From an uncultured Candidatus Saccharibacteria bacterium (lineage in GTDB: Bacteria > Patescibacteriota > JABMPQ01 > JAQVVF01), in contig CAZNOH010000002.1 in assembly GCA_964574655.1 (NCBI GenBank), positions 29,620-93,619 of the forward strand: 64,000 bases of DNA. Reading direction: 5' to 3'. The position numbers and the translations under genes are program-made. The notes under the pieces are model-generated. The model saw only the letters and a program-made list of their open reading frames with translations. It searched no databases and was not told where the DNA came from. Shown here in pieces: positions 572-61,957 of this stretch. The first letter of the stretch is position 1. Every line of letters starts with the position of its first letter.

Positions 572-587
572 ATATTTGAAATTAAAA

Positions 588-1093
588 ATATTACGGATAT
601 TACGAGATATTACCGATATTACGTCTTTCTGCCGGCAGACAGGGATACTGTGACGTCATTTTTTAGGATAGCAGGAACTTATGTATTGATTTAAAATTTT
701 GTGAAGACTATTCAGCTTATAAATTAACACCTTAAATTCATCATTGGTTATTTTAGATCTATTCTTAAGCAAAAGCGTCCAATGCTTTGATTCTAATAAT
801 GATCCGCGAGAATTATAGTAAAATTTAATTCTATCTAGATAATGGAATCTACCATAACCTTCTGCAATGTTCGCACCAACTGAATCAACGGATCTTATGA
901 ATTGATCGCCTATTATCTTTTTATCTTGCCAAGCGAATCTATCGAAAATCTTCCAAGCATGATTGCTTAAATTGTACGCTAATTTATAAACAGCTAAATC
1001 TCCCAATTTAACATAATCTTTCATTGTCCCCCCAAAAGATTATTTAATATCTCAATATCAGTAATATCCGTAATATCTAATATCCGAATATCC
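588..1093. mobile_element. IVS-type cassette: inverted repeats of the ATATCCGTAATATC family flanking a four-helix-bundle gene
   Basis: The left arm at 588-626 (tattacggatattacgagatattaccgatattacg) is the reverse complement of the right arm at 1049-1093 (cagtaatatccgtaatatctaatatccgaatatcc). Confidence 0.5.
656..1024 (-). CDS. four-helix-bundle protein (TIGR02436; 23S rRNA intervening-sequence protein family)
   Basis: Carries the DSVGANIAEGYGR motif and the RGSLLE segment typical of this family, at about 120 aa. Confidence 0.75.
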   Translation of the reverse strand: MKDYVKLGDLAVYKLAYNLSNHAWKIFDRFAWQDKKIIGDQFIRSVDSVGANIAEGYGRFHYLDRIKFYYNSRGSLLESKHWTLLLKNRSKITNDEFKVLIYKLNSLHKILNQYISSCYPKK

Positions 1094-2955: not shown

Positions 2956-2980
2956 AAATTAGTTAAAAGTTATAAAATAT

Positions 2981-3085
2981 AATACGAATACGAGTACGAA
3001 TAATGCGAATGATACGAATTGCAAATCGTCGTATTCGTAATTCGCAACATTCGCATTATTCGTATAGCCATTCGTATTATTATAT
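2981..3085. repeat. imperfect palindromic CGAAT/ATTCG-rich element, copy A
   Basis: aatgcgaatgatacgaattgcaaatcgtcgtattcgtaattcgcaacattcgcatt. Its reverse complement recurs at 58436-58518. Confidence 0.6.
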
Positions 3086-8013: not shown

Positions 8014-8142
8014 AAATTCAGAATTTAGAATTTTGAATCAATTTTGAAATAAGAAATCAGAATTTGGAAATTAAGAAGAGTTTTAAAATTAAAAATTAAG
8101 TAATTTAAAATTGATTAAAAATTAAAAATTTAACCTACACAC

Positions 8143-10572
8143 ATGGAAATAGGTATAATTAGAGATCGCAAAATCATTGACGAAATGCAGGAATCATATC
8201 TTGACTATGCAATGTCAGTTATAGTCTCTCGTGCGCTTCCTGACGTTAGAGATGGAATGAAGCCAGTTCATCGCAGAATTTTATATGCAATGTGGGATAT
8301 CGGTCTTCGCGCCAATGCAAAATTTAGAAAATCAGCCACAGTAGTCGGTGAAGTTTTGGGTAAATACCATCCTCATGGCGATATTGCTGTCTATGACTCT
8401 TTAGTTCGCTTGGCTCAAGAATTTTCTATGCGTAATCCATTGGTCAATGGACAAGGAAACTTTGGTTCAGTAGATGGCGACTCAGCAGCTGCTATGAGGT
8501 ATACAGAGTGTAAATTATCTAGAATTGCTGAAGAAATGCTTTTTGATATTGAAAAAGAAACTGTCGATTTCATTGATAACTATGATGGTTCACATCAGGA
8601 GCCAACAGTTTTACCAGCAAAATTACCAAATACCTTGATTAACGGCACAATGGGTATTGCTGTTGGTATGGCTACAAATATCCCTCCTCACAATCTAATT
8701 GAAATTGTTAATGCCATCTCATTATTAATTGAAAAGCCCGAAGCTTCAGTTGAAGACTTGATGCAATTTGTTAAAGGTCCTGACTTTCCAACTGGCGGTA
8801 TGATTTTTAATAAACAGGAAATTCTGCAAGTTTATGCAACTGGTCGTGGTGGAATTACAATGAGAGGTGTTGCTGATATTGAAGAAGAAAAAAAGGGCAC
8901 TTTCAGAATTATAATTACAGAAATTCCATTCCAAGTAAACAAAGCTACATTGATCGAAAAAATAGCTGATCTAGTCAAGAATAAAAAGATAGACGGCATT
9001 AGAGATCTTCGCGATGAATCTGACAAGGACGGTATTCGCGTTGTTGTTGAATTAAAAAAAGAAGCATTTCCCAAAAAAGTTTTAAATAGATTATACAATC
9101 TGACACAGCTACAGGAAAAATTTCACGTAAATATGCTTGCTTTGGTTGATGGTATCAAGCCAATGGTTTTGAACTTAAAGATGATGTTGGAAAAATATGT
9201 AAAACACCGAGTTGTAATCGTAACTAGGCGCGCTCAATTTGATTTACGCAAGGCTAAAGAAAGAGCTCATATTTTAGAAGGCTTAAAAAAAGCTTTAGAC
9301 CATATTGATGAAATTATAAAAATAATTAGAAAATCAGAAAGCAAAGAAATTGCCCATTTGAATTTAGTCAAAAGATTCAAATTCAGCGATGCGCAGACTA
9401 CAGCAATCTTGGAAATGAGATTATCTCAATTAGCAGCATTGGAAAGACAAAAGATTGAGGATGAATTGAAAGAAAAAAGAAGAATTATTAAAGAATTAGA
9501 AACTTTGCTAGCAAGCAAAAAATTAATATTAGGCGTAGTCAAAACTGAAGTTATAGCTTTAAGAGACAAATTCGGAAATGAAAGGCAAACAAAGGTTTTT
9601 TCATCAGGCATTGAAGAATTCAAGCCAGAAGATCTAATTCCAAAAGAAGACATCGTTATCAGTCTTACACGTGGCGGTTATATCAAGAGTCTGCCAGAAG
9701 CAACCTATCATGCTCAAAAACGTGGCGGTAAAGGCGTTATCGGCATGGCTACCAAGGAAGAAGATGTTGTTGATCATTTTTTCATGGCTGATACCCATTC
9801 TGATATTCTTTTCTTCACAAATTCAGGCAAAGTATTTCAGCTAAAAGCTTATGAAATACCAAAAGCAACTCGTCAGGCTAAAGGACAATCAATTGTTAAT
9901 TTCTTACAGCTATCTTCCGAAGAAAAAGTAACAGCCTTGATTTCATTAGATAAGAGCGTTATTTCTAAATATTTAGTCATGGTGACAAAGCAAGGCGTGA
10001 TTAAAAAAGTCACTCTTGAAGAATTTGGTAATGTCAGAAGATCAGGTCTAATTGCAATTAAGATCAAACCAGGCGATGAATTAGAATGGGTCAAGCCAAC
10101 GTCAGGTGCAGATCAAATTGTTCTTATCACTAAAAATGGCCAATCAATCAGATTTAAAGAAAAAGATGTTCGCGCCATGGGTCGTACTGCTTCCGGAGTT
10201 CGCGGTATTAAATTAAAAGGCAGTGATATCATTGTTAGCATGCATACGATTTCAGAAAAAATTACCAAAGACCAAAAAATATTTGTTATTACAGAAAATG
10301 GCTATGGAAAAACTACAAAAATCAGCGCTTACAAAATTCAAGGTCGTGGCGGTTCTGGAGTTAAAACAGCTAAGATCACATCAAAAAATGGTCCAATAGT
10401 CGCCGCCGGGGCAATTGATAGCACTATTGAAGAGTTGATCATTATTTCTAAAAAAGGAACTGTTATCAGAATTTCTGCTGATGCTGTCCCAGAACATGGC
10501 CGTGCTACTCAAGGAGTTCGAGTCATGAGAATGGAAGCCGGAGACAAAGTTGCCAGCGTGGCGTATGTTTAG
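8143..10572 (+). CDS. gyrA: DNA gyrase subunit A
   Basis: [27 protein letters not shown] near the N-terminus, the AAMRYTE active-site region, and C-terminal beta-pinwheel repeats. Confidence 0.95.
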
Positions 10573-13333: not shown

Positions 13334-13403
13334 CTTTCGAATTAAAAATTATAAATTCAAAATGAAAAACAATTATCAGCGTTTATCAATTTCAGAATCA
13401 GCG

Positions 13404-13874
13404 TTAGATCAGCGCTTGTCTGCTAATCTCATAAGCAACAATTCCGCCAGCCACGCTTACATTCAAAGATTCTTTCTTGCCCTTCATTGGAATCTCAATA
13501 AAATTATCACAATATTTCAAAATATCTTTTGATAATCCTTTCACTTCATTACCTAATACTAATGCAACTGGAAATTTAGGTTTATATTCAGAATAATTAA
13601 TGCTTTTTTTTGTTTGTTCAAGAGCAACTATATTATAACCACCATCTTTAAGTTTTTTCAATATCCGCCAAGTTGTAGTAACGCTCTCAAAAGCTACGAA
13701 TTTTTCAGCGCCTAATGCAACCTTAGCAATTCTTGAATGAGGAGGCGCAGGAGTTATCCCGCCTAAATAAATTTTATCAATCCCCGCTCCGTCGGCAGTT
13801 CTAAATATTGAGCCAACGTTGAATCTGCTTCGGACATTATCTAAGACTAAAACAAAATTTTCTATTTTGTCCAT
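13404..13874 (-). CDS. SpoU/TrmH-family RNA 2'-O-methyltransferase
   Basis: SPOUT motifs (GNEVKGLS, IPMKG, SLNVSVAGGI). Confidence 0.8.
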   Translation of the reverse strand: MDKIENFVLVLDNVRSRFNVGSIFRTADGAGIDKIYLGGITPAPPHSRIAKVALGAEKFVAFESVTTTWRILKKLKDGGYNIVALEQTKKSINYSEYKPKFPVALVLGNEVKGLSKDILKYCDNFIEIPMKGKKESLNVSVAGGIVAYEISRQALI

Positions 13875-14293
13875 TTTAAAATACCTCGCTTTATTAGATC
13901 TGGAAAGATCTTATTCTTTAATATTGGTGACAAATCATTCCACTCGCTATCTTGAGTAAACCAAATGATCTCTTTTATTTCGCTTGTCGGTCTAGCCTCG
14001 TGTTTAATATTTCCTTGATAAAGTTTAATTCTGACAAATTTATTTTCTTTTGGATCATCAGAAGATGCCTTGTCAATGTATGTTCCTACATATGAAGGAA
14101 CACCAATAATTTCGTTATCTGATCCTAGTTCTTCTTTGATCTCTCTCTTTAAACAAGTAATATCATCCTCGCCTGCTTCAATCTTACCGCCAGGCAATAT
14201 CAATTTTGACGTATAATCTTTTTTCCGACAAAGCAAAATCCTATCATTAAGCACAATCAACAAACCTATTTTGTCAAAATCGATATTTTGCAT
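13862..14293 (-). CDS. NUDIX hydrolase
   Basis: Nudix box GGKIEAGEDDITCLKREIKEELG. The start is placed at MQNIDF, since the longer ORF would run into tRNA-Cys. Confidence 0.75.
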   Translation of the reverse strand: MQNIDFDKIGLLIVLNDRILLCRKKDYTSKLILPGGKIEAGEDDITCLKREIKEELGSDNEIIGVPSYVGTYIDKASSDDPKENKFVRIKLYQGNIKHEARPTSEIKEIIWFTQDSEWNDLSPILKNKIFPDLIKRGILKWTK

Positions 14294-14332
14294 TTTTAAT
14301 TTTGAATTTTTAATTCGCAATGAGGCCTGGAC

Positions 14333-18653: not shown

Positions 18654-18908
18654 ATTGCTGATTGTGGAAGGAAATAAATAATCAACTTTAATGTTACAAG
18701 ATATTATTAAAGTAAAGATTCTAGATCTTTACTCAATGATCATGACTTCTCCATTCGGTTTATACCTAATAATGAAGAAGTAACAAAAATCTCCAAGCAG
18801 GGGATTTTTTGTTTGGAAAAAATCTGTTAAAATAAAACTAAGTTATAAAGTCCATAAAGTTATAAAGTTTTTAAAGTACTTTACAAACTTTATAACTTTA
18901 CAAACTTT

Positions 18909-19997
18909 ATGAACTACAAGAAGATAATTCCTATTAGCGTAATTATACTGGCGATAGCTTTGTCTTTTGTTTTTATTAAGTTCAAAGCAACAGCGCCTGA
19001 TCCATTAAAAAATTGGACTTTAAAACAAAAAGTTGGTCAATTATTAATGGTTAATTTTAATGGCACTGAACCTGATTACTATGTTAACAAGATGATTCTA
19101 GAAAGAAATGTCGGTGGCGTGATTTTAATGGGAGCAAATATTAAAGACAGCGAGCAAGTCAAAATTTTAACGAATGCCTTGCAATATAATACAACGCAAA
19201 ATGAAAAGCAAATCCCTTTATTTATTTCAGTTGACCAAGAAGGCGGGGAAGTCACAAGGCTAAAAGATGTAGAGAAAACAGCGCAGAAAGCTATTAAGAC
19301 TGAAGACCAAGCACAAAAAATTGCCAAGACTAGGGGAGAGCAACTATTAAATTTAGGGATAAATATTAATTTAGCGCCTGTTCTAGATTTTAGTGATGAC
19401 AAAAAATCATTTATTTATTCTCGGACTTTTGAAACTGATTTAGATAATACAACGAAATTAGGTATCTCAACTGCAAAAGGGTATAATCAAGCAAAAATTA
19501 TTTACGTGCCTAAGCACTTCCCCGGCCATTTTAATTCTGTAATTGATTCTCATCAAGAATTGCCAATGATTTTAGAATCAGAAAAAGAAATGCTTAAAAA
19601 TGTTGAGCCATTTGCAGAAGTAATCAAAGACCAAGATCCAAAGATAATAATGACATCTCATACACTTTATCCCGAGATAGATCCAAAATATCCAGCAACG
19701 TTATCAAAGAAAATATTAAATAATATATTAAGAAAAAAGCTGAAATTTAATGGATTGATTATGACTGATGATTTAAGTATGAAAGCATTAACAACAAAAT
19801 ATCCAATTGAAGAAACAGCAGTAAAAGCCTTACAGGCGGGAAATGATATTCTATTAATTATCAGCGAACCTGAAGAGCAAGTCAAAGTTTTTGATGCAAT
19901 TATAAAAGCAGTCGAAGAGAATAAAATATCAGAAAAAGAAATTGATCAAAAAGTGATTAAAATTCTAGAAACAAAGAATCAGATGTTAGATAAATAG
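18909..19997 (+). CDS. nagZ: beta-N-acetylhexosaminidase, GH3 family, membrane-anchored
   Basis: KVGQLLMVNFNG, DQEGG, KHFPGHF and MTDDLSMKA are GH3 N-terminal domain motifs; N-terminal TM segment. Confidence 0.8.
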   Translation: MNYKKIIPISVIILAIALSFVFIKFKATAPDPLKNWTLKQKVGQLLMVNFNGTEPDYYVNKMILERNVGGVILMGANIKDSEQVKILTNALQYNTTQNEKQIPLFISVDQEGGEVTRLKDVEKTAQKAIKTEDQAQKIAKTRGEQLLNLGININLAPVLDFSDDKKSFIYSRTFETDLDNTTKLGISTAKGYNQAKIIYVPKHFPGHFNSVIDSHQELPMILESEKEMLKNVEPFAEVIKDQDPKIIMTSHTLYPEIDPKYPATLSKKILNNILRKKLKFNGLIMTDDLSMKALTTKYPIEETAVKALQAGNDILLIISEPEEQVKVFDAIIKAVEENKISEKEIDQKVIKILETKNQMLDK

Positions 19998-25952: not shown

Positions 25953-26045
25953 TCGGAGCGTCGGAGAATCAGAACGTCAGATCGTCGGAGCGTAGGACGT
26001 TCCGACGTTCCGACGTTCTGAAGCTCCGAAGATCTGACGCTCCAA
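25953..26045. repeat. tandem octamer array of the GACGTTCC family, second copy in the same orientation
   Basis: tcagaacgtcagatcgtcggagcgtaggacgttccgacgttccgacgttctg. Confidence 0.6.
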
Positions 26046-26912: not shown

Positions 26913-26983
26913 CGGGGCATAGTATACCGGTAGTACGCGTCCTTCGGGAGGATGTAGACTGGGTTCGATTCCCAGTGCCCCGA
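26913..26983 (+). tRNA. tRNA-Pro(CGG), copy 1
   Basis: C1-G72 pair, anticodon loop TTCGGGA, T-arm CTGGGTTCGATTCCCAG. Confidence 0.75.
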
Positions 26984-26990
26984 TTCGAAT

Positions 26991-27068
26991 TATAAATAAC
27001 TAAATGAAAAATAACAAAATTGCCGTCGGGTCGATAATTTAGTTATTTTGTTATTTAGTTATTTATAA
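26991..27068. repeat. tRNA-associated hairpin element (arms ATAACTAAAT...AACAAAATT)
   Basis: aaataactaaatgaaaaataacaaaatt-gccgtcgggtcgat-aatttagttattttgttatttagttattt. A homolog occurs at 30409-30493. Confidence 0.6.
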
Positions 27069-27076
27069 TTCACAGT

Positions 27077-27147
27077 GGGCCTATGGTATAGTGGCAGCAC
27101 GTGGCATTCGCATTGCCAAGACGGCGGTCCGATTCCGCCTAAGTACA
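27077..27147 (+). tRNA. tRNA-Ala(CGC)-like, possibly degenerate
   Basis: Anticodon arm TGGCA-TTCGCAT-TGCCA, a G3-U70 pair, T-arm GGCGGTCCGATTCCGCC. The acceptor stem has two mismatches. Confidence 0.45.
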
Positions 27148-30408: not shown

Positions 30409-30493
30409 TTAATAACTAAATAACTAAATTCAAAATAACAAAATTATCGTTGATAAATTTAGTTATTTAGCATTTTGTTATTTAGTTATTTTT
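30409..30493. repeat. tRNA-associated hairpin element, second copy
   Basis: aataactaaataactaaattcaaaataacaaaatt-atcgttgat-aaatttagttatttagcattttgttatttagttattt. Confidence 0.6.
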
Positions 30494-32469: not shown

Positions 32470-32550
32470 CGCGATGATAATTTAATATCCGAATATCTTA
32501 ATATCGGTAATATCTTTATTCATAAAGATATTCGGATATTAGGATATTAA
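32470..32550. repeat. orphan palindromic hairpin of the AATATCCG family between pilB and pilC
   Basis: aatatccgaatatcttaatatcggtaatatc...gatattcggatattaggatatt. Confidence 0.55.
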
Positions 32551-32564
32551 AATATTAAACTAGC

Positions 32565-36943: not shown

Positions 36944-38344
36944 ATGAATAATTCAACAAGATCTCAAAAGGGTGCAGCATTAATTGTAGTATTGGTTTTC
37001 ACAAGCATTTTTATGGTTGTGGCAATCGGTTTATTGCAATTAGTCGGTACCTTATACAAAACATCTGTAAAAAAACAAAGCTCTCTTCGCGCATTACAAA
37101 TTGCCGAAGCTGGAGTCAATTATTACAAATGGCGTCTTTCGCATTCTCCAAATGATTATTCAGGTTCAGGAGATTACAACTATACAGATCCTTATGGTGG
37201 AGTGATTGGCCGTTATAATTTACAGATTACTCCGCCAATAACTGGTTCAACAATTCTTACAATTACATCAACAGGTTATCTGAACGACGATCCAAATATC
37301 CACCGCACGATAGAAGTAAAATATGGAAAAAAATCTTTATCAGATTACACATTTTTTACTCATAGTAATGTTTGGTTTGGAGATGATGAAGAAGTAAAAG
37401 GCAAGATCCATTCAAATGGCGGAATCAGAATGGACGGCATTGGCGATTCAATAACAGAAAGTTCTCGAGAAAAATATATTTGCGGACCAGAGCATGGTTG
37501 CAATTATGTTGAACATGATGGAGTTTGGGGCACAGGAGAGATACAAGAGCTATGGCATTTCCCACCAGCCTATCAAGTTCCAACAATTGATTTTAATTCA
37601 CTTAGCGTTAATCTAGGCGGAGCTGGGGGATTAAAAGAAAAGGCGCAATCAGCAGACGGAGATTATATCGGCTATTCAGGCAGTTTTGGTTATCGCATCA
37701 AATTCAATGCCAATCCCGCAACTTATGATCTATATCGTGTTACAAGCACAAGGTCATCATATGGTTACGATCTTGCTGACGGCTGGAAATGGCGATACAT
37801 TGATATTCGCAACCAAACATATGTTGCTACATATCCAATTCCAGCAAATGGAATAATATTTGTTGAAGATCAAGTTTGGGTTGATGGAGATGTGCAAGGA
37901 CGAATTACGCTTGCTTCCGCAAATTTTTTGGCAACTGGCTCAGATCGTAGTATAATAATTAATGGAGATATCAATTATGTAGCAAAAGATGGTAATCATG
38001 TGCTAGGACTTATTGCTCAAAAAGATATTCTAGTCCCGCTTTATAGTCCAGAAAGGCTTGAAATCAATGCAGCGATGATCGCTCAAAAAGGACATGTTTT
38101 TTTGTATAACTACCAAGCCTCTCGTTATGGTGCAAGCTTAGTAGTAAAAGATTATATTGAAGTATATGGAAGTATCGGAACAAATAATATCTGGACCTGG
38201 TCATGGGTAAATTCACAAGGAACCGTAGTATCAGGCTATAAACAAACTGAAACCATCTTTGATAAGAATTTAACATACGCGCCTCCTCCAGATTTTCCAC
38301 ATAAAGAAGAATATGAACAAATCAGCTGGAAAGAAATACATTAG
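36944..38344 (+). CDS. prepilin-like protein (PilX-like, 466 aa)
   Basis: N-terminal GAALIVVLVFTSIFMVVAIGLL hydrophobic helix, then a large globular domain. Confidence 0.55.
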   Translation: MNNSTRSQKGAALIVVLVFTSIFMVVAIGLLQLVGTLYKTSVKKQSSLRALQIAEAGVNYYKWRLSHSPNDYSGSGDYNYTDPYGGVIGRYNLQITPPITGSTILTITSTGYLNDDPNIHRTIEVKYGKKSLSDYTFFTHSNVWFGDDEEVKGKIHSNGGIRMDGIGDSITESSREKYICGPEHGCNYVEHDGVWGTGEIQELWHFPPAYQVPTIDFNSLSVNLGGAGGLKEKAQSADGDYIGYSGSFGYRIKFNANPATYDLYRVTSTRSSYGYDLADGWKWRYIDIRNQTYVATYPIPANGIIFVEDQVWVDGDVQGRITLASANFLATGSDRSIIINGDINYVAKDGNHVLGLIAQKDILVPLYSPERLEINAAMIAQKGHVFLYNYQASRYGASLVVKDYIEVYGSIGTNNIWTWSWVNSQGTVVSGYKQTETIFDKNLTYAPPPDFPHKEEYEQISWKEIH

Positions 38345-38349
38345 TTAAT

Positions 38350-38488
38350 AATAGCTAATAATCAATAATCAATAATCAACGAATATCCAATATCCAATAA
38401 CTGAATAATCAATAAAGTGATCATCGTCGATTTGGTTATTAGAAGATTGGTTATTGATTATTCGTTGATTATTGGTTATTGATTATTC
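38350..38488. repeat. about 140-bp perfect-arm palindrome upstream of pilM
   Basis: aataatcaataatcaataatcaacgaatatcc...ggttattgattattcgttgattattggttattgattatt. Confidence 0.6.
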
Positions 38489-38496
38489 AAGAATTT

Positions 38497-39570
38497 ATGA
38501 GTAACTTTTTCACTCCTAAAAAACAAGCATTCGGTATAGAAATAAGCGATGCTTCAATAAAAGTTCTCCAACTGAAAAAAGGAGGCAAATTTTGTAAACT
38601 TCTAGGCTATAATATTTTAAAAATTCCTCAAGGATTAGTAGTCTCAGGTGAAATAAAAGACACGAATATACTTGCCACTCATATTCAAAGAGCTGTGCAA
38701 AATGCAAAGCCAAGAAGAATTTCAACCTCAAATGTGGTTTGCTCGCTTCCAGAAAACAAAACATTTGTCAGGATATTAGAAATTCCTCAGATGAGCAAAG
38801 AAGAGCTTAGCGAAGGAATTAAATGGCAAGCAGAGCAATATATACCATTGCCAATAGACACAGTTTATTTAGATTGGCAAATTATTGAAACAGTAGATAG
38901 CAAACAAAGAATTCTAGTTGCCGCTGCACCCAAAAAGCTTGTTGATGACTACATAAAAGCATTAAAAACAGCCAAGCTAAAGCCTTTAGTTTTGGATCTT
39001 GAAGAAGCTGCTGAAGCGCGTGCTTTGATTTCTGAAGATCAAAAAGAAGCAAGTCTGATAGTTGATATCGGCGCCACAAAAACAGTATTTATTGTTCATG
39101 ATCGAAAAATAGTTCCTTTTGCATCCAATACTCAAGAAGTTTGTGGAAATAAATTTACCGAAAATATTAGCAAAGCCTTAAAAATAAGAATTGAAGATGC
39201 AGAAGTTAAAAAAACAGCTTGTTGCAGTTCAGAGCTATCTTCCGAAGAAAAAGCATTGCTGCAATCAATTTATCCATTATTTGATTCTCTTGCTATTCAG
39301 ATAACCAAAATCATTAATTACTATCAAAATCATTTCAAATCTGCAAATCCTATCAGCAACATTATTTTGTGTGGTGGAGGCGCAGGGATATCTGGCATAG
39401 TTCCTCATTTAACATTAAAATTAAAAATGAAAATAGCTGTTGCTAATCCGCTTGCTAATTTATCAGTAAAAAAGAATTTACCAATAAATAAAAAAGACAT
39501 TTTAAGATTAACAACTGTTATTGGGCTTGGAATTAGAGGTTCAGAAATCATTGAATATAGTAAACTATAG
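38497..39570 (+). CDS. pilM: type IV pilus assembly protein PilM (actin-like ATPase fold)
   Basis: FGIEISDASIKVLQL N-terminus and a two-lobed actin-like length; start placed at MSNFF. Confidence 0.8.
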   Translation: MSNFFTPKKQAFGIEISDASIKVLQLKKGGKFCKLLGYNILKIPQGLVVSGEIKDTNILATHIQRAVQNAKPRRISTSNVVCSLPENKTFVRILEIPQMSKEELSEGIKWQAEQYIPLPIDTVYLDWQIIETVDSKQRILVAAAPKKLVDDYIKALKTAKLKPLVLDLEEAAEARALISEDQKEASLIVDIGATKTVFIVHDRKIVPFASNTQEVCGNKFTENISKALKIRIEDAEVKKTACCSSELSSEEKALLQSIYPLFDSLAIQITKIINYYQNHFKSANPISNIILCGGGAGISGIVPHLTLKLKMKIAVANPLANLSVKKNLPINKKDILRLTTVIGLGIRGSEIIEYSKL

Positions 39571-40103
39571 GATGATGCCAATCTACAAATCTTATGCCAA
39601 TTTACAAATTGCTAATATGTTAATGTCATGAATAATTTTACGAATTTGGTTTATCCAGAACTTTCGTATAAGATAACGGGTGTTTTATTTGATACTCATA
39701 ATAGTTTAGGAAGATTTTGTAACGAACAACAATATTCAGATTTTCTTGAGGACAATCTGAAGAAAATGAAAATAAAATATGAACGTGAAAAAATATTACC
39801 AAAATCTTTTGAAGAAGAACAAAAGGGACGAAACAGAATTGATTTTTTGATTGAAGACAAAATAATTTTAGAAATCAAAGCAAAAAGAATCGTTTTGAGA
39901 GAAGATTATTATCAAGTTAAAAGATATTTAATTGCCTTTAATAAAAAATTAGGCCTACTCGTAAATTTCAGAGACAAATATATTAGGCCAAAGCGTATTT
40001 TAAACTCCTCAGTAAAAGAGTATGAAAGTGTTAACAATCAGCAAATCGGCATAGCAAATTAGCAATTTGTAAATTGGCATAAAATTAGCGTATTGGCATC
40101 ATT
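39571..40103. mobile_element. cassette flanked by inverted repeats, carrying a GxxExxY gene and inserted between pilM and pilN
   Basis: The left arm at 39571-39619 (gatgatgccaatctacaaatcttatgccaatttacaaattgctaat) is the reverse complement of the right arm at 40050-40103 (attagcaatttgtaaattggcataaaattagcgtattggcatcatt). The left arm starts right after the pilM stop codon. Confidence 0.6.
39628..40062 (+). CDS. GxxExxY family protein (TIGR04256; IVS-associated)
   Basis: YPELSYKITGVLFDTHNSLG N-terminus and the downstream IDFLIEDKIILEIKA...LGLLVNF segment match the family pattern. Confidence 0.8.
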   Translation: MNNFTNLVYPELSYKITGVLFDTHNSLGRFCNEQQYSDFLEDNLKKMKIKYEREKILPKSFEEEQKGRNRIDFLIEDKIILEIKAKRIVLREDYYQVKRYLIAFNKKLGLLVNFRDKYIRPKRILNSSVKEYESVNNQQIGIAN

Positions 40104-40117
40104 AAATCCAAACGTCC

Positions 40118-40669
40118 ATGATCACAATCAATCTATTATCATCTGAAGAAAAAAAGGATATTTCCTACGAAAGAAGCAATATCTCTCTTGTCGGTTCTTT
40201 TGTCATACTTGGCTTTGTCCTTATAATGCTTACTTTTGTGCTTTACACAATCAGCGACGTTCAGAAAGGCACTTTAAATGCAGTAGCTTCTGAAACAAAA
40301 AACATTGAAAAATTTCTCAATCAAGAAGGGAATGCACAAATTGAATCAAAGATAAAACAAATCAACAATTACTTAAGCACAATCAAGGCAATAGAAGAAG
40401 ATAGAACTGATTTTGCTAAAACACTTACAGAAATTGCTAACCAAACTATCACAGGCATCAGAATTTTTGACATTAAGCTAAACAAGACTGACAAAAACTT
40501 TGAAATTTCAGGCAATGCAGTTGCAAGAGATAATTTAGTGCAATTCACTAGCAATCTAGGAAAGACAGGCTATTTTGAAAGCATTGAATCTCCTCCATCA
40601 AACTTAATAAGCCCAACAGATATTAGCTTTAAAGTAACCGGCAAATTAACAGATAAAGCGTTAAAATGA
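40118..40669 (+). CDS. pilN: type IV pilus protein PilN
   Basis: N-terminal ITINLL motif followed by one TM segment and a coiled-coil region. Confidence 0.75.
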   Translation: MITINLLSSEEKKDISYERSNISLVGSFVILGFVLIMLTFVLYTISDVQKGTLNAVASETKNIEKFLNQEGNAQIESKIKQINNYLSTIKAIEEDRTDFAKTLTEIANQTITGIRIFDIKLNKTDKNFEISGNAVARDNLVQFTSNLGKTGYFESIESPPSNLISPTDISFKVTGKLTDKALK

Positions 40670-41355
40670 AGACTCTAAACAAAAATCAGAAATCATGGCT
40701 AACAATAGGCATCAGTCTAGGCATTGTTTTGATTTACGCAGGATTAGTTATTTATCCTCAAACATCAAATATCCTTGAGCTCAACAGCAAAATCTATAAA
40801 GAAAAAATTAGACAAGCTGAGCTAAAAATCCAAGAAAATGATATAAAGCAGGCAAAGGACAGAGAGAGCGATGTAGATATCATCTTGGATCAGCTCTCAA
40901 TTCACTTAACAACAAAAGACGATATTCTGAATTTTATTATTGAGCTTGAAAACATCGCAAAACAAACAAACAATACTCAGGAAATAAATATAGTAGAGCA
41001 GACAAATGCGCCTCAAGTCCAAAAAACAGAAAATGAAGAAAAGCCAAGCAACACGAATACTGGCACTAATTCATCGGCCACTGTTGATCAGGAGCAAGCT
41101 AGCACAGCAAAAGATTTCATTGAGGTTGAAGTTAAGCTTCAAGGCTCTTTTGAAGATTTAATCGCTTACCTTAGCGAACTAAAAAAAGCCACCATTCTAA
41201 CCGATGAAACTTCTCTTGAAAGCCAGTTAGCTGAGCTAGCATCAACGCAAACAAACAAGCAGCTTGTCCAAAATGAAACAGCGCCTCAAACAAGCGACCT
41301 TTCATCAACGCTCAAACTTAGAGTTTATATAAAAGATCAAAATGTCACAAAATAG
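40666..41355 (+). CDS. pilO: PilO-like pilus assembly protein
   Basis: N-terminal TM segment then coiled coil; 4-nt overlap with pilN; placed in the pilMNO order. Confidence 0.6.
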   Translation: MKTLNKNQKSWLTIGISLGIVLIYAGLVIYPQTSNILELNSKIYKEKIRQAELKIQENDIKQAKDRESDVDIILDQLSIHLTTKDDILNFIIELENIAKQTNNTQEINIVEQTNAPQVQKTENEEKPSNTNTGTNSSATVDQEQASTAKDFIEVEVKLQGSFEDLIAYLSELKKATILTDETSLESQLAELASTQTNKQLVQNETAPQTSDLSSTLKLRVYIKDQNVTK

Positions 41356-50936: not shown

Positions 50937-52013
50937 TTGTATTATATTTAATATCTAATACATTAAGTTTACCACTAAATTAAATAAAAATCCAGTGAAA
51001 TAAAAAAAAACAGGCGCCAGAGGGCGCCCGTTAAAAATATTTAATGGCGCTCTGGCACCCGTTGGAGTCATATCTTACCGCCTTTCTCCTATTTGTGTTT
51101 AGCACATAGGATAAGAGCAGGATTTAGCGATATAACTCATACAAGGTGCACAAGAAGCCTGATAGTTCTTCAATGTGTCTTTTCTCTCACCGTCCTTCTG
51201 GCTTTTGATCTATTTTGGATCTTGGCCTTAATTTTTGTTTTTGATTTTTTGACCCCAATTGATTTGGAGTATAAAGTACAATACGGGTGTATCAGCACCC
51301 TTAACGGACAGAGAGAGCGTGCCTCACGCGAATACTCACTGATTTCACTAATTGCCACTAATGCGATTAGAATTAGTGTTAATTAGTGAAATTAGTGTAG
51401 ATTAATGTGAAGGACGCTCTTTCCGTACGGTCGCAGTAAAATAGATTTTAATTAAGATATCGTTAATCAGCATAAGTTGCCCAAAGCTGACCAAATGGCA
51501 GAGCCATTGAAGATTAGCGCGGGTAAAAGAAGAGGAAATATACAATAGTTCATCTTATAAACATATATTACCACTCAGGATAGCAAAAGAAATGTGTTCT
51601 TTTGGCTCGTCTATGAATCATTTTAGCTTTTTTCTATGTAAATCAAGATTCTCCACTCTGCAACACGTCAAAGAGCAAACTTTTCTTCAATTACAATATA
51701 AACTAGGCAGAAAGCCTAATCTGATTCTGACAAGCTCAAATTTTGAAAAAACGTTTTTTGTTTTTGTTTCTACATATATTATAGCATGAAATAACAATTT
51801 GTTCAAACCTTGTGATAAATAATAATTAGGGCTTTAATAAAGCCAATATGCGAGTTATCAACAGTGAACAATAAAGTTATACACAGGCATGTTAATAACT
51901 ATTAAGCAGTTTTGAACAACATAGTACCAGCTTATCCACAGTCTTTTGAACAATTTAATAACAAAAAAATCCAGATAACTGGATTAAAAAGATCTAATAT
52001 TGAATTTTTAAGA

Positions 52014-58418: not shown

Positions 58419-58435
58419 TAGATTATGTGAAAATA

Positions 58436-58518
58436 TAATACGAATAAACGTACAAATAATGCGAATGTTGCGAATTACGAATACGACGATTTGCAATTCG
58501 TATCATTCGTATTATTAT
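58436..58518. repeat. CGAAT/ATTCG palindromic element, copy B (reverse complement of 2981-3085)
   Basis: aataatgcgaatgttgcgaattacgaatacgacgatttgcaattcgtatcattcg. Confidence 0.6.
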
Positions 58519-60134: not shown

Positions 60135-60139
60135 GGATA

Positions 60140-60275
60140 AAATATCTAATTTCTAATTCATAATTTCTATTGAATGTCTAATATCCCAATTTCTAATTCT
60201 AGCTATCGGCAAATAGCTTTAGAAATTAGTAATTCAATAGAAATTAGAAATTTAAAATTAGATATTCTAATTATA
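60140..60275. repeat. about 130-bp imperfect palindrome (AATTTCTAATT repeats) upstream of paralog 2
   Basis: ctaatttctaattcataatttctattgaat...attcaatagaaattagaaatttaaaattag. Confidence 0.5.
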
Positions 60276-61759: not shown

Positions 61760-61957
61760 AGCAATAAAAGTTTCCGCGTCTTTTGCGTACGATTCTGCGT
61801 TATTCTGCGCAGAAACACGCTGAATTTAACGCAGAAGACGCAGAATTTATATAACAGAATTTATATTAATTAATTACGGAATTCTCTCTCAACTTGATCT
61901 CCAAATAATCAGACATACGTCTGCAATTTGTAGGTCAATAGAGAAGAATCAAAACAA

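Follow-up and report, generated by a model that had tools for sequence, protein, structure and literature searches.

What is a small nuclease gene, bracketed by long inverted repeats, doing between pilM and pilN in the middle of a pilus operon? The locus lies in a 64,000-nt stretch of DNA (hereafter, the window) that is AT-rich (34% GC) and, as indicated by its named relatives, belongs to a Patescibacteria genome of the candidate phyla radiation (CPR). The original prediction described a GxxExxY-family gene between inverted repeats and read the arrangement as a mobile cassette of the type found as intervening sequences (IVSs) in 23S rRNA. The locus is a selfish-looking cassette of ~530 bp, made up of the nuclease gene and two inverted arms, which replaces a short pilM-pilN spacer. 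With a probability of roughly 55%, we read it as a compact, selfish, horizontally spreading DNA element that consists of a single minimal PD-(D/E)XK gene between terminal inverted repeats of ~45 to 50 bp.

The gene and its repeats are placed as had been predicted. The open reading frame (ORF) at 39628..40062 (plus strand) spans 435 bp including its stop codon, encodes 144 amino acids, and scores 80.6 bits against the TIGR04256 hidden Markov model (HMM), for which the curated cut-off is 35. Inverted-repeat detection located a left arm at 39572..39622 and a right arm, its reverse complement, at 40052..40102 (both listed on the plus strand); they measure 51 nt each, are 86% complementary, and have 429 nt between them. 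The left arm starts 1 nt past the pilM stop codon (TAG at 39568-39570), and 15 nt separate the end of the right arm (40102) from the pilN ATG (40118). Five T[GA]CNAAT units make up the left arm (ATGCCAAT at 39575-82, CTACAAAT at 39583-90, ATGCCAAT again at 39594-601, TTACAAAT at 39602-09, and TGCTAAT at 39610-16), the outer end of which reads ATGATGC. The same unit structure is kept in the left arm of ~60 homologous loci. The right arm ends in GCATCAT and holds the stop codon of the ORF (TAG, 40060-40062). An inner 23-mer, ATGCCAATTTACAAATTGCTAAT, is confined to the two arms, where none would be expected by chance (100 shuffles), and a search with it returned no further arm copies in the window. 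The usual member of the family is ~131 amino acids long and ends in NSxxKE; here, the stop codon that usually follows KE has been lost, and 13 extra codons (40024-40062) run into the right arm. A mini-ORF of 19 codons, MMPIYKSYANLQIANMLMS plus stop (39572..39631, plus strand), can be read from the sequence across the left arm, and its TGA overlaps the ATG of the GxxExxY gene (ATGA). We considered it as a conserved coupling device and rejected the idea, given in-frame stops in the arm of other loci; it is probably incidental.

Evidence that the cassette arrived at this junction comes from relatives, which were gathered by a genome-collection scan with PilM together with look-ups with PilN homologues. 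Five relatives, whose PilM and PilN are 62 to 82% identical to those of the window, have no such gene where pilM meets pilN. Spacers that lack a GxxExxY gene measure 72 nt in L002 and L103-105, 80 nt in L101 and L102, 79 nt in L106, and 8 nt in L107, and in distant pilM loci pilN lies 14 to 18 nt downstream with no gene between. The 72- to 80-nt spacers (L002/L103, L101, and L106) have in common a small hairpin of TAGTAAC units, unrelated to the cassette arms. Pairwise identities give the tree (L107,(L106,(window, L101,(L002, L103)))); because this tree nests the window among hairpin carriers, the TAGTAAC hairpin is ancestral and was replaced by the cassette in the window lineage. Judged from these comparisons, the cassette is a lineage-specific insertion or replacement, and the junction does occur empty of the gene, as the original prediction supposed for an insertion as opposed to a fixed resident. 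No target-site duplication could be defined: the flanks of the cassette (TATAGG on the left and TAAATCC on the right) contain no direct repeat, comparisons of the window with L002 and L101 and of L047 with L048 yielded none, and no highly identical pair of filled and empty sites exists among the loci. The comparison of L047 (2686-2820) with L048 (700-770) did uncover a rearrangement in contigs that are otherwise collinear. After the GxxExxY stop codon, L047 and likewise L045 carry an extra segment of 131 nt, made up of an incomplete right arm, one whole copy of the left arm, and an intact right arm; its last 9 nt are those with which the downstream gene begins. This duplication of arm segments may represent a nested insertion or an arm-mediated rearrangement.

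The cassette is one of many. A metagenome scan with the GxxExxY protein returned 80 loci, some of them on near-duplicate contigs, with proteins 60 to 84% identical, and 59 of the 80 (60 of 81 sequences when the window is included) carry at least three motif units on each side of the gene. The aligned arms have the consensus AT[GA]ATGCNAAT-NT[GA]CNAAT-nnn-ATGCYAAT-CTACNAAT-TGCNAAT, with five T[GA]CNAAT units, and the right arm has the reverse complement. The more alike two of the proteins are, the more alike their arms tend to be (rho, 0.25; Mantel, 4/1000), and by this measure gene and arms form one conserved unit. A protein search of a database clustered at 90% produced 1,419 matches, the best of which are 65 to 84% identical and, where named, come from CPR lineages (Parcubacteria and Doudnabacteria); the GxxExxY family as a whole comprises 5,042 representatives at 50% identity. 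Like insertion sequences, the cassette family has conserved terminal inverted repeats and many insertion sites. In the HMM libraries, its protein matches no transposase of a known family and no Y1 transposase.

The neighbours of these cassettes are diverse, unrelated genes, which are protein coding at nearly all 80 loci, with a tRNA gene at one. The original prediction was right to place the cassette in a protein-coding operon and not in rRNA; it was mistaken in regarding that location as unusual, because protein-coding neighbours are the rule and none of the loci is in rRNA. There is no rRNA in the window or in 16 long homologous loci, and long rRNA probes found no match in the 80 loci, where two short probes of 15 to 16 nt gave matches with three mismatches only. 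None of the 80 homologues sits at the pilM-pilN site. GxxExxY cassettes do lie directly upstream of pilC in two CPR contigs (L052:929-2137 and L096:4552-5760), and pilus operon junctions are thus hit repeatedly; PilM in other CPR loci is ~30% identical to that of the window. The downstream neighbour is co-oriented with the cassette gene at 69 of 72 loci and the upstream neighbour at 63 of 73, with arrangements of (+,+) in 52 cases, (-,+) in 10, and (+,-) in 2. Neighbouring genes end or start ~45 to 60 nt from the ORF, i.e., at roughly one arm length and at the arm ends. Often, the upstream stop codon is a TGA or TAA within the outer AT[GA]ATGC (aTGAtgc or aTAAtgc), and the final two bases of the arm, together with a G, make up the downstream ATG (GCATCATG). 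The cassettes apparently constitute a widespread, undescribed population that resides exactly in the gap from the stop codon of one gene to the start codon of its neighbour.

This plan extends beyond the CPR. Distant GxxExxY genes, with proteins 31 to 33% identical, occupy a Bacteroides finegoldii plasmid between radA and the gene for a FAD protein (L100:1424-1897) and a Bernardetia replicon (L099:1451-1901); both have the same order of stop codon, arm, gene, arm, and ATG, with arms of 28 to 30 nt made of CACAGAGG-type units of 8 to 9 nt. A Treponema copy has arms of just 16 nt. In six loci (L022, L023, L030, L031, L032, and L038), the cassette stands between divergent genes, both of which have start codons at or over the arm ends (CATGATGC on one side and GCATCATG on the other). 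These loci leave no room for native promoters, which implies either that the cassette has promoters that face outward or that the starts are misplaced. Some arms appeared to enclose extra cargo, namely, an amidohydrolase in L053 and ORFs of 109, 91, and 274 amino acids in L079, L064, and L032, respectively; no partner recurs, and these ORFs are probably host genes caught between a cassette and the next hairpin.

What, then, are the arms? If they had been selected for pairing, the arms would be expected to covary and, on the sense strand, G·U mismatches would be commoner than A·C ones; neither was seen. At 20 variable columns, arm-arm agreement is 0.453 versus 0.415 when arms are permuted among elements, a value reached by 19 of 2,000 permutations; this small excess comes mostly from a few strongly covarying columns and not from the N positions. 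G·U and A·C mismatches number 79 and 90 (p = 0.44). Left and right arms are 0.78 identical within an element and 0.745 between elements, and because these values are nearly equal, the complementarity arises mainly from the presence of the same motif array, inverted, in both arms. Seen this way, the arms appear to behave as terminal inverted repeats, like transposon ends with reiterated binding sites, and not as a selected RNA stem; motif arrays that are conserved, scarcely covary, and are not enriched in G·U speak against the RNA-processing stem of the original prediction. An RNA stem would still form physically, and effects on the pil transcript are likely, yet they are apparently not the property under selection.

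The encoded protein is predicted to be a nuclease of minimal size. TIGR04256 is matched over positions 1-115 of 116, and PF13366 (PDDEXK_3) scores 85 bits (cut-off, 22). E33, D72, E82, and K84 are invariant among homologues, so that the PD-(D/E)XK catalytic residues are intact, and the D...(D/E)xK triad lies on the core alpha/beta fold. The AlphaFold model shows a minimal PD-(D/E)XK core (pLDDT, 85) with a disordered arm-encoded tail (residues 133 to 144). As for the motif that names the family, E33 is invariant and Y36 is present in at least 90% of homologues; the glycine position three before the glutamate is occupied by Phe30 (G28-R-F-C-N-E33-Q-Q-Y36). The CPR subfamily reads GRFCNExQY and the Bacteroides member GAGLLESTY. 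No solved structure matched the sequence at E <= 1, a phage library gave one PHROG match of unassigned function, and PADLOC returned no convincing match (best E = 0.003, to type IIG restriction and Cas4 models) and no partner genes. PF13366 is listed as of unknown function in the sole classification that we found in the literature (PMC3424549). Many strong GxxExxY-domain matches also occur inside predicted proteins of 270 to 900 amino acids (P0135, P0144, P0151, P0180, and P0196, among others), which probably result from reading through an arm that lacks stop codons into a neighbouring gene.

Around the cassette, the pil operon is otherwise compact. The upstream neighbour, pilM (38497..39570, plus strand), is identified by TIGR01175 (189.3 bits; cut-off, 133) and PF11104 (161.6 bits). 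The downstream pilN-like gene (40118..40669, plus strand) is assigned by synteny and a weak match to PF05137 (19.6 bits; cut-off, 22.8); its orthologues have Pfam PilN matches on record, most of them weak, and NCBI annotates one as a PilN-domain protein. A pilO/GspM-like gene (40666..41355, plus strand) overlaps pilN by 4 nt, a tight coupling typical of the pil operon. No terminator-like site lies within 38200-40400. When a 566-nt stretch of RNA is folded, the arms close a loop of ~430 nt (dG, -134 kcal/mol; z = -7.4 versus shuffles), and read-through or processing of the pil transcript at the cassette, as had originally been proposed, is plausible. Hexamers of the TTGGCA type that resemble -35 elements point outward in both arms, and a -10-like hexamer overlaps the ATG of the neighbour at many loci. 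An outward sigma-70 promoter in the right arm is a possibility raised by these weak consensus matches. Shine-Dalgarno-like 4-mers precede 6 of the 41 long ORFs in the window, in keeping with a genome that is largely Shine-Dalgarno independent.

Hairpins without a gene are a second component of this landscape. The window holds twelve junction hairpins, and in the relative L101 most junctions of the pilus cluster hold one. Two of the twelve are built of T[GA]CNAAT units: one at 2979..3080, with 5+5 units, a 6-nt loop, and the ends ATAATACGAAT and ATTCGTATTAT, and another at 58435..58515, of the same TACGAAT-type subtype. Each is situated between co-directional minus-strand genes, overlaps the upstream stop codon by 1 nt, and resembles the arms of the L086/L077 cassette subtype, not those of the window's own cassette. 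This match predicts either another cassette elsewhere in the genome or relics of one. In L040, L086, and L091, solo hairpins with T[GA]CNAAT units lie 0.5 to 1.3 kb from the cassette and match the arms of their own locus best (52, 77, and 66, respectively, versus at most 46, 43, and 54 elsewhere).

Other hairpins in the window are built from different units. One at 32477..32556 consists of GATATTNN units and fills the junction between pilC and a 609-amino-acid gene in the position of the T2SSE ATPase of L101. One at 38357..38487, with AATAATC/ATCCAAT units and 56-nt arms, fills the junction upstream of pilM and is not present in L002. Further long gene-less hairpins, detected as inverted repeats, lie at 60138-60269, 51305-51429, 25953-26037, 61772-61845, 18845-18910, and 8022-8130. 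These eight hairpins have arms of 29 to 58 nt that are 76 to 89% complementary, and each has its own degenerate tandem unit of 7 to 8 nt. Most of them fill the entire stop-to-start spacer (the exceptions are 51305-51429 and 25953-26037), relatives have other hairpins or none at the same junctions, and their mismatches display no G·U bias (16 versus 13). Hairpins of AATAACTAAAT units fill the spacers from tRNA-Pro(cgg) to tRNA-Ala (26972-27086) and from tRNA-Pro(cgg) to tRNA-Gly (30411-30490); the tRNA-Pro(cgg) gene is present in two copies in the window. Moreover, 35-nt inverted repeats that are 86% complementary (13335-13369 and 14286-14320) bracket a two-gene minus-strand unit between tRNA-Leu and tRNA-Cys. 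By eye, its genes resemble those for a SpoU-type methyltransferase and a NUDIX hydrolase, and the unit (13335-14320) may be a larger version of the cassette arrangement.

A sister cassette connects the locus to rRNA. At 572..1092 (minus strand), inverted arms of GATATTNN 8-mers enclose a PF05635 gene, and the cassette fits tightly between the ftsH stop codon (1099) and the ATG of the next minus-strand gene. Its ORF (656-1024, minus strand; 122 amino acids) matches PF05635, the 23S_rRNA_IVP family of four-helix bundles, at 82.9 bits, and its arm shares 14 identical nt with the solo hairpin at 32477..32556 (GATATTCGGATATT units). In L029, a PF05635 cassette and a GxxExxY cassette flank a gene for a MacB/FtsX-like permease, and L087 contains a PF05635 cassette with CCTAAAT arms. 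The contigs L085 and L087 are 99.9% identical over 8.9 kb, and L085 has a 173-nt internal deletion in its PF05635 gene (8950-9130) that looks like decay of a cassette toward a gene-less hairpin. Tandem copies of the PF05635 element in L085 were considered as evidence of transposition and rejected, since the flanks are duplicated too, as by a segmental duplication or an assembly effect.

The original prediction had named TIGR04256 as the family found inside 23S rRNA IVSs, an attribution for which we found no support. The documented family in rRNA IVSs is PF05635 (S23p), as in Coxiella, where an IVS of 428 nt is closed by a 28-bp stem of terminal inverted repeats, and the points at which RNase III cuts this stem are mapped (PMC4990558). 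Among CPR rRNA insertions, one survey reported PF05635 (22 ORFs), LAGLIDADG, and GIY-YIG proteins and no PDDEXK ORF (PMC11270868). We found no record that ties TIGR04256 or PF13366 to rRNA, and the ORF at 39628-40062 has no PF05635 match. The idea of an IVS-type mobile cassette stands in part. As in an ORF-bearing 23S IVS, a small sense ORF is enclosed by a stem of terminal inverted repeats, and the PF05635 gene beside ftsH has the same architecture; the cassette does not lie inside an rRNA gene helix, being located between pilM and pilN in a window without rRNA, and a protein-coding junction is its usual habitat.

We propose that the arms are cis-acting DNA sites read sequence-specifically, most plausibly by the encoded nuclease. 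As the relatives show, the cassette came to lie between pilM and pilN in this lineage by supplanting a small hairpin of earlier date. It would lack a dedicated promoter and be expressed by read-through from the host operon, as suggested by the orientation bias and the lack of a terminator. Once transcribed, the arms could pair and bring the pilM stop codon and the pilN start codon back together, and the long stem might also be cut by RNase III. Such pairing or processing would limit polarity on pilNO, which is probably why insertions are tolerated. Solo hairpins would then be internally deleted, nonautonomous derivatives. Spread, which is the least supported step, would start with nuclease cleavage at or near the arm arrays, after which recombination would copy the cassette into further junctions or hairpins.

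Several observations weigh against this proposal. We know of no precedent for a PD-(D/E)XK protein of 131 amino acids acting alone as a mobilising enzyme, and binding of the arms by the nuclease as the mobilising step is a prediction. Among the loci compared, no transposition or homing event is seen at nucleotide resolution, and neither a precise empty site nor a target duplication is definable, the nearest empty site being diverged and holding another hairpin. Two columns of the arms covary strongly, namely, G/A in the outer AT[G/A]ATGC (0.91 versus 0.53 expected) and AAT/AAC in unit 4 (0.98 versus 0.62 expected), which fits subtype-specific recognition or some pairing constraint. Most junction hairpins of the genome have a private unit sequence, as compatible with local origin as with mobility. 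The unrelated family PF05635 occurs in the same hairpin layout, and the hairpin could therefore be the primary entity, with the genes as passengers. Finally, the near-duplicate contigs among the 80 loci mean that counts across them are not fully independent.

The covariation bears on an explanation at the RNA level, in which the arms form a double-stranded stem in the pil transcript that RNase III cuts, as in 23S rRNA IVSs, so that a stem-capped GxxExxY mRNA is set free and the pilM message is split from that of pilNO. The stable arm-closed fold, the resemblance to ORF-bearing rRNA IVSs whose stem is cut by RNase III (PMC4990558), the PF05635 gene of identical layout in the window, the nearly invariable sense orientation of the gene, and the similar hairpins in tRNA-tRNA spacers would all suit it. 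Nevertheless, we hold it to be unlikely, if far from negligible: covariation is minimal, complementarity within elements barely exceeds that between them, G·U pairs are not in excess over A·C on the sense strand, and each arm keeps a conserved motif, to the point that, where the two arms mismatch, the right one holds to a consensus of its own (ATTAGCATATTTGCATCAT). Nor do the rRNA data help, with none of the 80 loci in rRNA and no PDDEXK ORF in the CPR survey (PMC11270868). Somewhat more doubtful is a domesticated, RAYT-like system, in which a nuclease retained by the host generates or maintains junction hairpins that punctuate operons, stabilise mRNAs, or act as promoters for the host, with the gene simply housed in one of them. 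A gene flanked by inverted repeats and accompanied by gene-less hairpins does mirror REPIN-RAYT (PMC3116915, PMC3337134); junction hairpins are as numerous as noted for the window and L101, and the divergent-neighbour loci, where both starts abut arms, imply outward promoters in the cassette or silent genes, with outward TTGGCA-type hexamers in both arms to match. However, those promoter-like sequences are weak consensus matches only, the position of the gene varies between genomes and close relatives lack it here, and most hairpin units are unrelated to T[GA]CNAAT, so that their sequences could not all be recognised by a single nuclease. RAYTs, moreover, are described as mostly vertically inherited, single-copy genes.

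Two further explanations concern the gene itself. It could be a solitary restriction-like or Cas4-like nuclease of addiction or defence, with flanking repeats that are incidental regulatory or terminator sequences; its fold, intact PD-(D/E)XK residues, and weak resemblance by HMM to Cas4 and to restriction nucleases of type IIG are what such an enzyme would have. We judge this quite improbable, given that no PADLOC model matches convincingly (best E = 0.003), that no methyltransferase, antitoxin, or cas gene recurs among the unrelated housekeeping neighbours, and that the arms are conserved with the gene at ~60 loci. An ordinary resident gene of the pilus operon, accompanied by chance or terminator-like repeats, would explain the co-orientation and tight packing, and is scarcely credible: five relatives and more distant pilM loci have a gene-free junction, which refutes it, the same cassette occurs between unrelated genes elsewhere, and the repeat far exceeds chance and includes no terminator-like site.

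How new would a mobile cassette of this kind be? The 8 million papers that we searched contain nothing on GxxExxY or PF05635 cassettes at operon junctions or on inverted-repeat junction elements in the CPR, and none of those among them that mention GxxExxY is about such cassettes. We rate the known kind as IVS-like or MITE-like elements (miniature inverted-repeat transposable elements) bounded by inverted repeats, of which the GxxExxY junction cassette is a variant. More tentatively, and with the odds against it, GxxExxY nucleases and, in parallel, PF05635 proteins could be the cargo or engines of a distinct, unrecognised class of mobile junction cassettes. If so, these would be hairpin-ended elements with arrays of a 7- to 9-bp motif as terminal repeats, would insert precisely in the interval from the stop codon of one gene to the start codon of the next, often supplying both, and would decay into the gene-less hairpins of operon junctions in CPR and Bacteroidota genomes. 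Classical 23S rRNA IVSs would be just the rRNA-resident minority of this population, and a PD-(D/E)XK protein of ~130 amino acids would be smaller than any known mobilising nuclease that is encoded by an element.

Where rRNA IVSs and the very common GxxExxY and "23S rRNA IVS protein" families come from, and what they do, has been a question since the early 1990s and is now testable. The locus and its ~60 relatives indicate that these genes live as discrete inverted-repeat cassettes at junctions, with gene-less derivatives and with filled and empty sites. Such elements are a possible source of the long hairpins that take up a considerable fraction of the intergenic spacers in such very small genomes. 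They are also a hazard for annotation, as read-through of arms yields spurious fusions and extensions of neighbouring genes.

Comparison with known systems places the cassette between several of them. Free-standing homing endonuclease genes, such as the seg and mob genes of phage T4 and the gene for the PD-(D/E)XK enzyme I-Ssp6803I, are small nuclease genes that lie between conserved genes. They exhibit presence/absence polymorphism between relatives, as the cassette does, and have one cognate site each. Unlike them, the cassette family occupies many unrelated junctions and has conserved terminal inverted repeats; presence and absence alternate at pilM-pilN, but with 0/80 homologues there, a single conserved target is not apparent. 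Correia elements of Neisseria and MITEs are likewise short, bounded by inverted repeats, located beside genes, and co-transcribed with them (PMC2649163). RNase III can bind or cut Correia hairpins, and the ends of the element can create promoters (PMC2649163). They are a good analogue for the gene-less solo hairpins, although Correia elements form one high-copy, gene-less sequence family, whereas the cassettes have a gene-bearing parent and arms that are internally tandem-repetitive.

REPIN-RAYT systems resemble the cassette in combining a single gene within inverted, hairpin-forming repeats with gene-less doublets scattered across intergenic sites (PMC3116915, PMC3337134). The layout is merely analogous, however, as the cassette enzyme is a PD-(D/E)XK protein and not an HUH/Y1 transposase of the IS200/IS605-like type. 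The cassette also differs in that its position is not conserved between relatives, its protein looks horizontally spread, and arm units vary among hairpins. The closest likeness in form is to the 23S rRNA IVSs of Coxiella and Leptospira, which are ~0.4 to 0.5 kb long and carry a small sense ORF in a loop closed by long-stem terminal inverted repeats. Their sporadic distribution suggests horizontal transfer, and they have long been suspected of being mobile, with the ORF aiding mobility (PMC4990558). The pilM-pilN cassette departs from them in its site, a protein-coding operon junction as opposed to an rRNA helix; in its protein, a PD-(D/E)XK nuclease (PF13366) in place of a four-helix bundle; and in its arms, which are heptamer arrays with regular mismatches, in contrast to a near-perfect 28-bp stem.

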